From assembly GCA_964549615.1 (NCBI GenBank), contig CAZJVP010000020.1:192001-256000 (forward strand): 64,000 bases of DNA. Direction: 5' to 3'. Of this stretch, positions 9,428 through 15,139 are shown one piece after another (the first letter of the stretch is position 1; each line of letters opens with the position of its first letter). A program made the translations under genes and the position numbers. This DNA is from an uncultured Thermococci archaeon. GTDB lineage: Archaea > CAYQAE01 > CAYVLA01. Below the pieces are notes generated by a model. That model saw only the letters and a list, made by a program, of their open reading frames with translations. It searched no databases and was not told where the DNA came from.

Positions 9428-10381
9428 ATGCCAGCCATCAGCATCAACCGGCTTTCCATGAGGACCGTCCAGACCCTCATCGACTCCCCCGAGATGTTCA
9501 ATGTCCAGATCACAAGACTATCGGACGGGTCGACCGTCATAGACGCCGGGATCGAAGCGGAGGGAGGCTACGAAGCCGGAAGGCTTGTGAGCGAGATCTG
9601 CATGGGGGGACTGGGTTCGGTTCAATTTTCCTTCACTGGGCCGATTGCCATCGAGTGCCCCTGGGTGGTCGTCTTCACCGATCATCCTCTCCTGTCCTGC
9701 ATGCTGTCGCAGATGGCCGGATGGTCGATCCGGACGAAGGGCTTCAGGGCGATGGGATCGGGGCCAGCAAGGGCTCTGGCCCAGGCGGAGGAGATCTACA
9801 GGCAATACCCCTACACAGACGGTCACTCCGAGGCCGTCATAGTCCTGGAGACATCCACCAAACCAGGGGAAACCGCCTCCGCTTGGATATCCGAGAGGTG
9901 CGGAGTAAGTCCCAAGAACCTCTACATGGTTGGGGCGCGAACCGCCAGCCTTGCGGGAACGGTGCAGGTATGCGCCCGAGTGGTCGAGACGGGAATGCAC
10001 AAGATGCACACCCTCGGAATCGATCTCGCGGGCATCCTAGCTGGACGGGGGACATGCCCGGTCCCACCCATCCTCCGGGACGACCTTGTCATGATGGGCC
10101 GGACCAACGATGCGATCCTTTACGGCGGCCGGGCAGACTACATCTTCGCTGACGCCTCCCGGTCACTTGCGCACCTGCAGTCCCTGCCGTCCTCGTCATC
10201 CTCTGACTACGGCAGACCTTTCGTCGAACTGCTCAAAGCTGCAGGATCAGATTTCTACAAGATCGATCCAGCGCTGTTCAGCCCGGCCGTCATGGGCATG
10301 GAGAACATGAAGTCTGGAAAATGCCTAAGCGCCGGAAGAATGGACATCGAGGTCCTCAAGAGGTCCTTCGGGCTGCCCTAG
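9428..10381 (+). CDS. mch: Methenyltetrahydromethanopterin cyclohydrolase
   Basis: IDAGIEAEGG.EAG....EICMGGLG, SQMAGW, AMGSGPARALA, TASLAGTVQV.ARVVETGMHK, MGRTNDAILYGG, PSSSS.DYGRPF, DFYKID..LFSPA. Confidence 0.95.
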   Translation: MPAISINRLSMRTVQTLIDSPEMFNVQITRLSDGSTVIDAGIEAEGGYEAGRLVSEICMGGLGSVQFSFTGPIAIECPWVVVFTDHPLLSCMLSQMAGWSIRTKGFRAMGSGPARALAQAEEIYRQYPYTDGHSEAVIVLETSTKPGETASAWISERCGVSPKNLYMVGARTASLAGTVQVCARVVETGMHKMHTLGIDLAGILAGRGTCPVPPILRDDLVMMGRTNDAILYGGRADYIFADASRSLAHLQSLPSSSSSDYGRPFVELLKAAGSDFYKIDPALFSPAVMGMENMKSGKCLSAGRMDIEVLKRSFGLP

Positions 10382-12018
10382 CCCAATGCCTTCTCAAGTC
10401 GGTCTGCCACCGTATCAGGTCCGAGTGCACAAACCAAAGGGCCCATTCTGGGTCCGTGGTCGGTGCCCAGCAGCAGCCTGTAAAGGATCTGGAAGAGCCT
10501 GGAAGGGCTCACCCCATGAAGCTCGGCTGCGGAGAACACCGACGACTGGATCGCATCAGGACCGGGACTGGTCTTGATGACGCGAGCTAGGTGGCGAAGG
10601 CTCGCCTTCTCCGGGTCGGTCAGCTTGGCAATGAATGCCCTGTCGGGCTCGCCGGCCGGCCGCAGGGCGAGCTCGGGCACGAACATGCGAACCCAGTTCC
10701 GGGCGTAGATCAACCTCTGCCTGATCTGCTCAACAGCCCTCTTCGAAGGACGGCCCTTGATCAGCTCGGTCCTCCGCAGTGCCTTGATCGCCTCTGACAT
10801 GGACTCCTCTGGATCGTAGACTTGGGCGATGAGCGAAGCGAGGGTCAGGTCGATGGTCGCCGGCCTCTCTTTCGGGGGACTTCGGAGCTGGGAGATGCGG
10901 TAAAGCCTGATCATGTGCGACCTCTCTCTTTCGTTCGAGGCATCGGCCTTGCCGTAGTAGACGTCCGCGTGTCCGTCGTAGTCGGCATAGAGCCTCGGCA
11001 ACTCCCGCCAGGAGAAGCTCCTGGTCTTCATCAGCTTCTTGTTGTACAGGAACCTGAGAAGCTCAGCCGGCGCGACCTTCAACCAGTCCGCCGGGTAAAC
11101 GACGTTGCCCAAGGATGCGCTCATCTTCCTGCCGTCTATCAGAAGATGCTCGTAGAAGAAAGGCGTCGGCATGGGGTAGTCAAAGATGCGCTCAGCTATC
11201 TCCCCGTTCACCCACCATGCACTCGTCGGAACCTCATACTCCTTTCCCCCGCCCTCGCAGCTCACCTTCCAAAGCGCCCATTCGCTCGCCCACTCCCCTT
11301 TCCAGAGGATCTTGCCCTTGTCGCGCAACGCATCCGCCCACCCCACGTAGCCGCATCCTTTGGCAACCGTCTTCTCGAACTGGTAGTCGCGGCATTCGTA
11401 CCTGATCCGCGAGCCGTCGATCTCCAAGACCTGAGGCGTTATCACCTTGCCGCACTCGGCACAGATGGGCTTCCATGGCGTCCACCCCGAAGAGAGGCTC
11501 GAATCCCTGTATTTCTCGAGGATCTCCCTGACCCGATCCCGATTGTCAAGGAGCTTCTTGATGTACCTGCGGAAGCTACCCCTGTCGTATTCCTGCGTGG
11601 TCGAATACCGACGGGCCTTGTTGACCACGAAGTCCTCCATCACTTCGAGGTACTCCGCCCGGTGGTGTTCCGCGTAGGAATCGTGACAGCCGGAGGGATC
11701 TGGAACCTCCGTCACCGGCTTTCCCAGGTACTCCTCGTATTCCTTGGGGACGCCTTCGGGGATGCTCCTAAGGGGATCCATATCCTCGCCGACCCAGATC
11801 ATGCGGGCCTTGGCACCGGCGTCGCGAAGCGCGGTCACGATGGAGTCCGCCCGGATGGTATCGCTCAACCGGCCTATGTGCAGGACGCCCGAAAGGGATG
11901 CCGAGGTCTTCACGACGAAGCATGTCCTCTTGGGAACGGGCTTGTCGACGAAGTGGTACTTCTTCCTCTCGCAGATCTCCCTTGCCTTCTGGTCGGCCCA
12001 GAACAGAGGCTCCGTCAT
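10378..12018 (-). CDS. lysS: Lysyl-tRNA synthetase, class I (archaeal type)
   Basis: FWAD N-terminus, SLSGVLHIG (HIGH), D.D.LR.IP, PDP.GCH.SYAEH, Zn-knuckle C..C, KMSASLGNV, GPRMG. Start ATG 12018 chosen because the 12072 start would overlap the tRNA gene. Confidence 0.96.
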   Translation of the reverse strand: MTEPLFWADQKAREICERKKYHFVDKPVPKRTCFVVKTSASLSGVLHIGRLSDTIRADSIVTALRDAGAKARMIWVGEDMDPLRSIPEGVPKEYEEYLGKPVTEVPDPSGCHDSYAEHHRAEYLEVMEDFVVNKARRYSTTQEYDRGSFRRYIKKLLDNRDRVREILEKYRDSSLSSGWTPWKPICAECGKVITPQVLEIDGSRIRYECRDYQFEKTVAKGCGYVGWADALRDKGKILWKGEWASEWALWKVSCEGGGKEYEVPTSAWWVNGEIAERIFDYPMPTPFFYEHLLIDGRKMSASLGNVVYPADWLKVAPAELLRFLYNKKLMKTRSFSWRELPRLYADYDGHADVYYGKADASNERERSHMIRLYRISQLRSPPKERPATIDLTLASLIAQVYDPEESMSEAIKALRRTELIKGRPSKRAVEQIRQRLIYARNWVRMFVPELALRPAGEPDRAFIAKLTDPEKASLRHLARVIKTSPGPDAIQSSVFSAAELHGVSPSRLFQILYRLLLGTDHGPRMGPLVCALGPDTVADRLEKALG

Positions 12019-12058
12019 GGATACACCGGAAAAATGAGCCGCGGATTCTAAAATGCCG

Positions 12059-12078
12059 TTCGCCCCGGCCACGCCGGT
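12059..12078 (-). other. tRNA-Met intron 4 (20 nt, acceptor-stem 3' strand, 68/69)
   Basis: Full hBHBh': GCC/GGC outer helix, CGCT/GGCG central 4 bp, bulges CC|A and AA|C, inner CCGGC/GCCGG. Removal yields TCCCGGC-A, which pairs with 5' GCCGGGG. Confidence 0.85.
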
Positions 12079-12101
12079 GGAGCGGGCTTCGAACCCGCGA
12101 C

Positions 12102-12118
12102 TTCCGTCTCTTCCGAGA
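12102..12118 (-). other. tRNA-Met intron 3 (17 nt, variable loop, about 45/46)
   Basis: TCTCGGAAGAGACGGAA with a CTC-GGAA-GAG hairpin. Relaxed central helix CCGG/ACGG, cuts AG|T and AA|G; removal restores the AGGTC variable loop. Exact register is ambiguous by a few nt. Confidence 0.75.
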
Positions 12119-12126
12119 CTCCGGAT

Positions 12127-12180
12127 GTCCCAGGGACATGGCCGGAGAACCTACGCTGGGTCCCGTGCCCTTAGGTCACC
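12127..12180 (-). other. tRNA-Met intron 2 (54 nt, canonical 37/38)
   Basis: Central helix CTCA/TGGG, bulges TA|G and AC|A; removal restores the CTCATAA anticodon loop. Confidence 0.9.
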
Positions 12181-12197
12181 TATGAGTCCGGCGCGCT

Positions 12198-12226
12198 CTC
12201 CGGTCGGGCCCCCTCGCGGGCCCGAT
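12198..12226 (-). other. tRNA-Met intron 1 (29 nt, D-loop, about 20a/21)
   Basis: Central helix CTGG/CCGG, bulges TG|A and AG|A, inner 8-bp hairpin TCGGGCCC/GGGCCCGA (relaxed BHB). Confidence 0.85.
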
Positions 12227-12280
12227 CACCAGCTGCGCCACCCCGGCAGTAGATTCGTTCCCAGAATCCTGAAAATGCCA

Positions 12281-12290
12281 TATAAATATA
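12281..12290. promoter_or_regulatory. TATA element between the divergent tRNA-Met and radical SAM genes
   Basis: TATAAATATA lies about 34 nt upstream of the tRNA 5' end (minus) and about 32 nt upstream of GTG 12322 (plus). Confidence 0.65.
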
Positions 12291-12321
12291 TCCGCCCTTA
12301 GGCCGGCCCCCGAGGTTCTGG

Positions 12322-13872
12322 GTGGGATCGCTTCTAAACGAGGTCGGCGGGTTCAGGAAGAGGAAGGCGCGGCTGAGGATCGCCCTCGTCTATCCCAACG
12401 CCTACGAGGTCGGCATGGCAAGCCTTGGCCTTCACACGGTCTACTCGCTGCTCAACAGCTACGAGGACGTCGCGTGCGAAAGGCTGTTCCTAGGAATGAC
12501 GACCACTATCGAGTCGGGCTCCCCCCTCTCGGCCTTCGATGTCGTAGGTTTCTCGCTCCAGTACGAGCTCGACTTCCTCAACATGGTCAGCATCCTGACT
12601 GCCTGCGGAATAGAGCCCCTCCGAAAAAGGCGCAGGAAGCCGACCCTGATCGCGGGCGGTCCCTGCTGCGTGAATCCGATCCCGCTCACTAGGATCGTCG
12701 ACCTCTTCGTGGTCGGAGACCTCGAGCCTGTGGCGGATCATCTGGTCGACGGCCTTCTTGCCAATAGGTCGCCGGCCGAGATCGCATCTCCGCACGGACT
12801 GTTCTCAAGCGAGCTGATGAATCGGTGCAAGGCGGCCAGGGCCATGGATCTGGATTCGATTCCAGCTCCGACGAACCAACCCCATCCAACGGCAGGCGGG
12901 TTCCGCCCGGCCCTAGGATCGACGTTCATGGTCGAGATCTCAAGGGGCTGCAACGTCCGGTGCAGGTTCTGCATGTACTCGCACTGCACTCAACCTAAGA
13001 GGGAGCGGTCGCTTAGGAGGATCCGTGAGATAGTGGACGAGGGGCTCGACGTGACCGGGCTGAAGAAGGTCTCGCTCGTCGGGGCACTCGTGACCGACCA
13101 CTCCGAGATCAAGGACATACTGGCCTATCTTGTCGATAAGGGCGTGTCGGTTTCCCTTCCGTCCATTCGGACGGACGAGGTGGACGACGAGATGCTTCAG
13201 CTCATTGCCCAACTCGGCGTCAGGACCATCACGGTGGCGCCCGAGGGCAGCCCGCACGTAAGGTCGATCCTCAAGAAGGACCTCGATGAGGATGCCTTGA
13301 GATACGTGACGGAAAGCGCGGCGGAGCATGGAGTCAGGAGGATAAGACTCTACTTCATAACCGGCGTGCCGGGCGAGACGAGGCAGGACCTAGAGTACGT
13401 GGTTGAGCTCTGCACCGGGTTGTCCAGGCGCTACAGGGGCAAAGGAGCCGTCACGGCCAGCGTGAATCCGCTCGTGCCGAAACCCCACACTCCCGCCCAG
13501 TTTCTCGCGATGGCCGATCCCAAGAGGATAGAGGAAAACTACAGATTCCTGAGAAAGGCCTTGCAACCGCGCGGGGTTGACCTCAAGCTGCAAAGCATGA
13601 AGGAGTCCGTCATTCAGACCTATCTCGCGCTGGGGCGGGAAGAAACTGGAGGAGTTCTCCTCAAAGCATCCCAGAGCGCCGCGGGACTCGCAGCGTGGAG
13701 GAGGATCGCTGAATCCGAAGGCGACCCACTGTCGAGGGTCTTCGAGGGCGTAGCCGCCACGCCCTGGGACGTGATCGACTCAGGCCTTCCGCGGAGCTAC
13801 CTTCGGAGACAGCACCGCGAGATGATCGCCGCACGCAATGCAACCGCTACCGCCTCAGGAAACCATTATTAG
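12322..13872 (+). CDS. Radical SAM protein with N-terminal B12-binding-like domain (TIGR03960-like), function unknown
   Basis: IALVYPN.YEVGMASLG, FDVVGFSLQYE, IAGGP, EISRGCNVRCRFC (CxxxCxxC), SLPSIR, TVAPEG, LYFITGVPGET, VPKPHTP.Q. Confidence 0.88.
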   Translation: MGSLLNEVGGFRKRKARLRIALVYPNAYEVGMASLGLHTVYSLLNSYEDVACERLFLGMTTTIESGSPLSAFDVVGFSLQYELDFLNMVSILTACGIEPLRKRRRKPTLIAGGPCCVNPIPLTRIVDLFVVGDLEPVADHLVDGLLANRSPAEIASPHGLFSSELMNRCKAARAMDLDSIPAPTNQPHPTAGGFRPALGSTFMVEISRGCNVRCRFCMYSHCTQPKRERSLRRIREIVDEGLDVTGLKKVSLVGALVTDHSEIKDILAYLVDKGVSVSLPSIRTDEVDDEMLQLIAQLGVRTITVAPEGSPHVRSILKKDLDEDALRYVTESAAEHGVRRIRLYFITGVPGETRQDLEYVVELCTGLSRRYRGKGAVTASVNPLVPKPHTPAQFLAMADPKRIEENYRFLRKALQPRGVDLKLQSMKESVIQTYLALGREETGGVLLKASQSAAGLAAWRRIAESEGDPLSRVFEGVAATPWDVIDSGLPRSYLRRQHREMIAARNATATASGNHY

Positions 13873-14742: not shown

Positions 14743-14817
14743 AGCGAGGTGGGGCAGCCAGGAGTGCCCGACGGGCTCATAACCCGTAGGTCAGTGGTTC
14801 AAATCCACTCCTCGCTA
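14743..14817 (+). tRNA. Initiator tRNA-Met(CAT), intronless, no encoded CCA
   Basis: AGCGAGG/CCTCGCT acceptor stem with A1-U72, anticodon arm ACGGG CTCATAA CCCGT with three consecutive G-C pairs, GGTTCAAATCC T arm. Confidence 0.96.
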
Positions 14818-15139
14818 CTCCTTTCAAGGCGTCCGTCGGTTTTGGGCGTCTGCTGGTGAGGCAGCCGCGCGCTGCGTCCTACGAGGGCATCTTTATTGTC
14901 ATACAGAGTGGTTCGGCCCCTGTCCAGCACTCTCAGTGCCCTGTTCGCCTCAATCGCAGTGAGGCGCGGGTTCAAAGACAGCTACGACGTCAAAGGTTGG
15001 TCGAAAGATCCCTCGGTCTTCGAACCCTACCTCGAAGTCGAAGTCGGGGGAAAGGTTTATCAGAGCAGCGCCTACCCGCAAAGGGGTACTGAGCCAGAGG
15101 GCTCTTCCTCGGGCGGGATGCTCGTTCGGGTGGGATTCG

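Follow-up and report, generated by a model that had tools for sequence, protein, structure and literature searches.

A predicted protein-spliced intron in the 3' strand of the acceptor stem of an archaeal elongator tRNA-Met gene

How can a tRNA be made from a gene in which the 3' strand of the acceptor stem is broken by 20 additional bases, only five bases before the mature end? This question is raised by positions 12059-12078 of a stretch of 64,000 nucleotides (the window) from contig CAZJVP010000020.1 of an uncultured Thermococci archaeon that inhabits a hot spring. The 20 bases lie in a gene for tRNA-Met(CAU) which occupies window positions 12247-12054 on the minus strand and is 194 nt long, with 74 nt of exon and 120 nt of intron sequence divided among five exons and four introns, the latter situated in the D-loop and at tRNA positions 37/38, 45/46 and 68/69. 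We consider it very probable that this gene encodes the single elongator tRNA-Met(CAU) of the organism and that all four of its introns are spliced by proteins, the fourth, at 68/69, by way of a motif of the bulge-helix-bulge (BHB) type.

The original prediction had placed a full hBHBh' motif around these bases, and the motif is present on the minus strand with every element as quoted there. Read on that strand, the outer helix (h) pairs GCC (12087-12085) with GGC (12057-12055), and the central helix (H) pairs CGCT (12084-12081) with GGCG (12064-12061), giving 4 bp that include one U.G pair. The two bulges, CCA (12080-12078) and AAC (12060-12058), consist of 3 nt each, and the inner hairpin (h') is formed by CCGGC (12077-12073) and GCCGG (12069-12065) around a GTG loop. 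The elements follow one another as in the canonical archaeal motif, namely h, H, bulge and h' along the 5' side and h', H, bulge and h along the 3' side.

Cuts after the second base of each bulge, a register that was checked against the 37/38 intron of the same gene, would excise positions 12078-12059 (intron 4, 20 nt, within the 3' strand of the acceptor stem) and join T66 C67 C68 to C69 G70 G71 C72 A73. These last bases make up the whole of exon 5 (12054-12058, minus strand), which has the length of 5 nt (CGGCA) that had been claimed for it and carries no encoded CCA. The joined strand pairs 7/7 with G1-G7 (12247-12241) and leaves A73 as the discriminator, so that the cuts do restore the acceptor strand as had been proposed. 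When the fully spliced sequence is submitted to ARAGORN, it is reported as tRNA-Met with all seven acceptor pairs from 1:72 to 7:66 formed, the model lengthening the stem by a single chance pair of A73 with the base that precedes G1.

The frequency of comparable motifs was estimated from random pairs of site and length in the window genome, with the criteria that H be 4/4, h' at least 5 bp and h at least 3 bp. A motif as good as that at 68/69 was found at 29 of 3,000,000 such pairs (about 1e-5), and the acceptor stem is restored by just one pair of site and length.

A DNA search of 41 genomes with the tRNA-Met gene gave full-length matches only in the window's own genome (G000) and in three other genomes of the family, with identities of 90% (G001), 83% (G002) and 75% (G003). 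The phylum is represented by five species genomes, and the sister-family genome G004 gave no match in this DNA search. The 68/69 motif is intact at the same place in 4/4 family genomes, with H 4/4 in all of them. In the order G000 to G003, h' has 5, 5, 5 and 8 bp and h has 3, 3, 2 and 3 bp; the introns of the four orthologs are 20, 21, 21 and 27 nt long. Standard pairs occupy 47 of the 48 motif pair cells; if the 3' partner is displaced by 1-3 columns, this share is 29-50%. The fifth pair of the inner hairpin reads C-G, U.G, U-A and U-A across the genomes, the stem being extended to 8 bp in G003. Once the intron is removed from the sequence, the acceptor stem is paired in 28/28 cells of the four genomes, with G7.U66 replaced by A7-U66 in G002, and exon 5 is invariant (0/5 columns vary) and pairs with G1-G4 in 4/4 orthologs. 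Related genomes were also where the original prediction had advised looking for tRNAs whose 3' acceptor strand is broken by a BHB hairpin; besides the 4/4 family orthologs, a tRNA-Asp gene that is described below is a further case.

Uninterrupted homologs were found as well. When metagenomes were searched with a pattern that made no assumption about the intron, at least 119 matches at no fewer than 118 loci were obtained. Among the matches listed, 2 carry the insertion and are identical to the window in it, while L192 and L200 are archaeal-type tRNA-Met genes with a 37/38 intron and the 5' strand GCCGGGG, and the remaining ones are other tRNAs. The 3' end of L192 and L200 is continuous (CCCGC-TCCCGGC-A) and is exactly the predicted spliced product. 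The tRNA-Met gene of G004 has its introns elsewhere and likewise a continuous end, CCCGC-CCCCGGC-A. A gapped-pattern scan of genome contigs was uninformative, as the best 80 of at least 120 stretches were all bacterial and were taken as chance matches.

These homologs bear on the possibility that the 20 bases are simply retained, the mature tRNA either using the intron-like copy CACCGGC as the 3' strand of its acceptor stem or carrying the hairpin as a protruding extra arm. With the three other introns removed, ARAGORN does still report a tRNA-Met, and a T-arm together with the hairpin makes a stable fold of the unspliced RNA. The ARAGORN model, however, starts one base upstream and contains two internal mismatches and two extra bases; a 2-nt excess in the unspliced stem had been noted in the original prediction. 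Positions 72 and 73 of a tRNA that retained the insertion would vary across genomes (C/T and G/A), whereas the homologous tRNA-Met genes keep C72 and A73, and A7 of G002 would oppose C rather than U. Retention moreover leaves the invariant GGCG and AA, which belong to the central helix and the bulge, without an explanation, and we regard it as very improbable.

The distribution of differences within the gene points in the same direction as its pairing. Variable columns number 6/74 in the exons and 59/129 in the introns (Fisher p = 8e-9, the columns not being independent of each other), and the exon variation is limited to position 7, four D-loop positions and position 60 of the T-loop. For the 68/69 intron, 13/27 columns are variable compared with 1/28 in its two flanking exons, which, coming from four sequences, is qualitative support. 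In the contigs of four other hot-spring or sediment metagenome runs, all of DNA, 9/9 differences fall in the three other introns; these contigs contain no differences in the exons or in 12059-12078, and no joints. A decaying pseudogene, in which the motif would be a remnant or a chance structure, would fit the fact that standard tRNA finders do not call the gene. It is contradicted by the exons being nearly invariant, while the introns diverge, across three genera, by a conserved box upstream of the gene (see below), by the low chance rate of the motif, and by the lack of any other candidate for this tRNA in a nearly complete genome. We give a pseudogene almost no credence.

This last point requires a closer look at the tRNAs with a CAU anticodon, of which ARAGORN reports two others in the genome, at window positions 14743-14818 (plus strand) and at C79:44439-44537. 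Initiator tRNAs have as textbook features an A1:U72 pair and three G-C pairs bordering the anticodon loop, and tRNA-Ile2 is recognised by textbook features as well. The tRNA at 14743-14818, which lies 2.5 kb from the four-intron gene and is uninterrupted, has both A1:U72 and the three G-C pairs and appears to be an initiator-like tRNA-Met. The tRNA on C79 has the same acceptor stem as tRNA-Ile(GAU) and appears to be tRNA-Ile2-like. A BLAST search of the genome with the L192 and G004 tRNA-Met genes gave no further candidate, the two 14-nt matches that it returned looking like coding sequence. Because the other CAU tRNAs are initiator-like and Ile2-like, because none further was found, and because the genome is 99.46% complete, the interrupted gene is its sole elongator tRNA-Met candidate. 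The loop CUCAUAA and A73 in the spliced model are in keeping with an elongator, and the acceptor ends equal those of L192, L200 and the G004 tRNA-Met.

Whether the cuts are made exactly where the motif would place them is a separate matter, for which the third intron of the same gene is instructive. The boundaries of this 45/46 intron (17 nt, 12102-12118, minus strand) were set by homology, so as to leave the variable loop AGGUC; the homologous genes L192 and L200 have AGGTC as variable loop, and that of G004 also has 5 nt. In this 17-nt version H is only 3/4. The alternative is a perfect 19-nt BHB (12119-12101), one base wider on each side and with H 4/4, which leaves a variable loop of 3 nt. 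Motif and true cuts can thus differ in this lineage, and by analogy the segment at 68/69 might be removed at other sites, through relaxed-motif cuts displaced by a base, or not by EndA at all, through another nuclease followed by repair. At 68/69, unlike at 45/46, motif and homology agree on the cut sites. The uninterrupted homologs have a 7-bp stem that only the predicted cuts reproduce exactly, and from the sequence it can be read that the stem is broken if either cut is moved by one base. Displaced or EndA-independent removal therefore seems to us very unlikely.

Several observations weigh against splicing at 68/69 as we propose it. None of the listed sequencing runs is recorded as RNA, and no splice junction was seen. 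The intron is known in only four related genomes, just one pair of its motif has changed on both sides, and a shuffle control of the pair counts was uninformative, the observed values being reached by 247 of 500 shuffles. The local fold of 51 nt has z = -0.20 relative to shuffles and favours the T-arm plus inner hairpin over the BHB. At 37 C the BHB conformer has -16.2 kcal/mol compared with -17.5 kcal/mol for T-arm plus hairpin and is thus 1.3 kcal/mol less stable, while at 75 C the two are about equal (-4.9 and -4.7 kcal/mol, respectively). A perfect BHB is also no sure guide to the cut sites, as at 45/46 homology puts the cuts one base further in on each side. Finally, strict motif scans yield false matches. 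A strict acceptor-strand scan of the genome gave three loci, namely the 68/69 site of tRNA-Met and one site each on C84 and C30, and the C84 match was rejected as it is an ordinary tRNA-Leu with an encoded CCA.

If the gene is expressed as a spliced elongator tRNA-Met, the following course of events can be envisaged. The transcript would start shortly upstream of G1 and run into a trailer, or possibly into the adjacent class I lysyl-tRNA synthetase gene. The 3' part of this precursor would fold as a BHB, with bases 60-62 paired to 70-72, bases 63-66 paired to the intron sequence GGCG, and the intron hairpin inside. The motif, spanning 12055-12087 on the minus strand, draws on base 60 of the T-loop, bases 61-65 of the T-stem, U66 and the final exon, and for this reason it excludes the T-stem and the acceptor stem; the BHB fold would be a transient alternative conformer that displaces both. 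EndA would cut the two bulges, each after its second base, RtcB would join C68 to C69, and the RNA would refold to the cloverleaf. Trimming of the 5' and 3' ends and addition of CCA would follow only upon ligation, because the acceptor helix and the acceptor-T minihelix are absent before it, and to place splicing ahead of end trimming is in our opinion a reasonable inference.

Genes for the enzymes that such a pathway would need are present in the genome. There is one RtcB gene (PF01139, on C30, E = 1.8e-182) and there are two EndA genes (PF01974/PF02778), on C88 and C90. The EndA of 403 aa (G000:C90; L022:1195-2406, minus strand) matches PDB 4fz2 over its full length with E = 2e-73, a structure that we take to be the three-unit (epsilon-type) splicing endonuclease of ARMAN-2, the match table itself not stating this. 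In that full-length similarity the enzyme would resemble the one from ARMAN-2; unlike ARMAN-2, the genome has a second EndA of 393 aa (G000:C88; L021:1456-2637, minus strand), which is a two-unit protein with a catalytic unit nearest to the 186-aa chains 3p1z_B and 3ajv_B. Two EndA architectures, one 4fz2-like and one two-unit, co-occur in one genome. According to excerpts of PMC3239211, the ARMAN-2 endonuclease cuts strict as well as relaxed motifs at non-canonical positions.

It is conceivable that the order of splicing is controlled by a functional helix of 13 bp in which 12147-12135 of the 37/38 intron pair with 12075-12063 of the 68/69 intron, and which would mask the last intron for as long as the anticodon intron is still in place. 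This helix is part of the minimum-energy fold of the whole gene (z = -2.67), and 41/52 of its cells pair in the four-genome alignment, compared with 24-49% when slid. Its best duplex, however, is no better than that of shuffled sequences in 4/4 genomes (z = -1.08, -0.75, +0.38 and +1.03), the contiguous pairing read from the alignment shrinks to about 6 bp in G001, 4 bp in G002 and 5-7 bp in G003, and both segments are GC-rich with CCGG palindromes. As it does not exceed the shuffles, we rejected it as a functional element and leave it only a slim chance. A pairing of leader with trailer was also dropped, as the sequences, when read, showed that it is not conserved.

The tRNA-Met gene is not the only one in this genome with an interrupted 3' acceptor strand. 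The gene for tRNA-Asp(GUC) at G000:C78:949-1074 (minus strand; L268:100-225), with G1 at 1074, has an insertion of 31 nt (982-952) at 70/71, which comes after C66-G70 (CCGGG) and before a last exon of 3 nt, G71 C72 G73 (GCG). It also has an insertion in the D-loop. The 70/71 insertion is present in 4/4 family genomes, and 61/64 of its motif cells pair, compared with 39-52% when slid; two genomes have an H of 4/4 and the two others one of 3/4, while the inner stem of 10 bp shows several one-sided changes and one two-sided change. The acceptor stem after excision is again paired in 28/28 cells, and the tRNA-Asp of the sister-family genome G004 has an uninterrupted end, TCGGGGC-G-CCA. The tRNA-Asp locus has the lowest Rfam score listed and is mis-modelled by ARAGORN. 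Predicted introns that interrupt the acceptor stem in its 3' strand recur in this family, with last exons of 5 nt in tRNA-Met and 3 nt in tRNA-Asp. A relaxed scan of the genome, which started from 729 T-arm-like sites and left 106 rows, mostly evident noise, gave only these two that, judged from the printed sequences and with the rows not all inspected singly, look like tRNA genes needing an excision. We tentatively suggest, as a possibility about which we have real reservations, that the lineage has protein-spliced introns of a class not described before, which lie in the acceptor stem's 3' strand, at 68/69 in tRNA-Met and at 70/71 in tRNA-Asp, and from which an obligatory order of maturation would follow.

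The remainder of the tRNA-Met gene, all on the minus strand, is organised as follows. Exon 1 (12227-12247) covers tRNA positions 1-20a, that is the 5' acceptor strand GCCGGGG, U8, G9, the 5' strand of the D-stem and most of the D-loop. It is followed by intron 1 (29 nt, 12198-12226) at 20a/21 of the D-loop, in which H is CTGG/CCGG and the inner stem has 8 bp. Here 21/30 columns vary and H is 4/4 in 4/4 orthologs, G003 having a compensatory swap from CTGG/CCGG to GCGG/CCGC. Exon 2 (12181-12197; 0/17 columns vary) holds positions 21-37, with the 3' strand of the D-stem, G26, the 5' strand of the anticodon stem, C32-A37 and the anticodon CAU. Intron 2 (54 nt, 12127-12180) is at the canonical position 37/38; its H is formed by CUCA (32-35) with UGGG, and its 3' bulge is ACA. 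In 4/4 orthologs this H is 4/4 and h has 5 bp, the inner helix being weak (1 bp) in 3/4. Excision with cuts after the second bulge base yields the anticodon loop CUCAUAA, as expected. Exon 3 (12119-12126; 0/8 columns vary) holds positions 38-45, and exon 4 (12079-12101; 1/23 columns vary, at T-loop position 60) holds positions 46-68, comprising G46-C48, the T-arm GCGGG-UUCGAAG-CCCGC, and U66 C67 C68.

The box upstream of the gene is the A/T-rich sequence GATATATTTATATG (12279-12292, minus strand), which lies 33 nt upstream of G1 and is invariant in 4/4 orthologs amid varying flanks; from its position and composition it is a putative archaeal TATA/BRE promoter element. Directly after A73 there is a TTTT run (12050-12053, minus strand), a possible terminator in the window genome only, as none of the three other orthologs keeps it at the corresponding site. 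On the same strand, 36 nt past A73, is the start of the class I lysyl-tRNA synthetase gene (10378-12018). In the list of open reading frames the synthetase frame is extended to a GTG at 12072, within intron 4, which is probably not the true start. On the other side, the tRNA gene is bordered by a divergent radical SAM gene (12322-13872, plus strand). Neither ARAGORN nor Rfam calls the tRNA-Met gene on the window, where the tRNA at 14743-14818 is the only one that either of them reports. When 11900-12400 was searched with Rfam at permissive settings, four weak, unrelated matches were obtained and no tRNA-Met.

Non-canonical BHB introns are known from Thermoproteales, ARMAN-2 and Nitrososphaeria ('Thaumarchaeota') according to excerpts of PMC4090602 and PMC3239211, and the positions named in the former are 20/21, 22/23, 25/26, 29/30, 30/31, 45/46, 53/54, 56/57 and 59/60. 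As far as these excerpts describe them, such introns share with those reported here the 3-4-3 hBHBh' signal, the enzyme families, the presence of several introns per gene and the refolding of exons. The difference is in the site, which in our case is 5 nt from the mature end and within the acceptor stem's 3' strand. Neither 68/69 nor 70/71 is among the positions listed in the excerpted text of PMC4090602, a list which closes with 'etc.'. A literature search for acceptor introns, unable to match positions written as 'x/y', returned only PMC3400036, which concerns a permuted algal tRNA.

The closest parallel is an intron at 3/4, in the 5' acceptor strand of some Thermoproteales tRNAs, which a passage of PMC4090602 (citing Sugahara 2008) calls an 'extreme case'. 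As at 68/69, the intron is within the acceptor stem and there is a terminal micro-exon, which at either site makes the acceptor helix impossible before ligation. The arrangement that we describe is the mirror image, with the micro-exon at the 3' end (5 nt in tRNA-Met, 3 nt in tRNA-Asp), and for that reason tRNase Z and CCA addition would have to wait.

With regard to the number of introns, earlier reviews gave a maximum of three per gene (PMC4033280; PMC3239211; both as excerpted). Parts of more recent reports describe genomes in which the majority of tRNA genes are broken by intervening sequences, up to five in a gene; many of these escape standard software, and they show enrichment at canonical BHB boundaries (bioRxiv 10.64898/2026.10.13.758758; PMC11291895). 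Unlike the lineage of the bioRxiv report, the present genome belongs to a different and very small phylum, with its five species genomes. Genome-wide, Rfam gave only 35 tRNA matches, of which 27 exceed 76 nt in length, and ARAGORN only 26 genes. It is probable that in this small phylum the majority of tRNA genes are interrupted and that several are still without annotation. The tRNA-Ile2-like gene (CAU) on C79 and the tRNA-Ile(GAU) gene at C51:38060-38157 each have an insertion in the variable region, the boundaries of which could not be placed on a strict BHB by hand. Taken together, we consider the mechanism to be the known BHB system, while the position of the introns is very unusual and a single gene with four introns is unusual outside the Asgard group.

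There are consequences for annotation. Both genes are missed or mis-modelled by ARAGORN and Rfam, so that a 99%-complete genome appears to be without an elongator tRNA-Met, and censuses of introns that stop at position 65 will undercount. If the tRNA-Met and tRNA-Asp introns are spliced as predicted, the BHB system would tolerate introns that come as close as three bases to the mature 3' end, and an essential tRNA may depend on a precursor fold that destroys its T-arm and acceptor stem. RtcB would in that case have to accept an exon of 3 or 5 nt as its substrate. Should acceptor-stem introns of this kind form a class of their own, the motif being built from bases 63-66 (tRNA-Met) or 65-68 (tRNA-Asp) together with the last exon, the precursor would first have to take a fold that is not that of a tRNA. 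RtcB would then ligate a micro-exon, either alone or still joined to a long trailer or to the downstream mRNA, and RNase P, tRNase Z and the CCA-adding enzyme would act only after splicing, so that the freedom with which the steps of tRNA maturation are usually ordered would of necessity be reversed.

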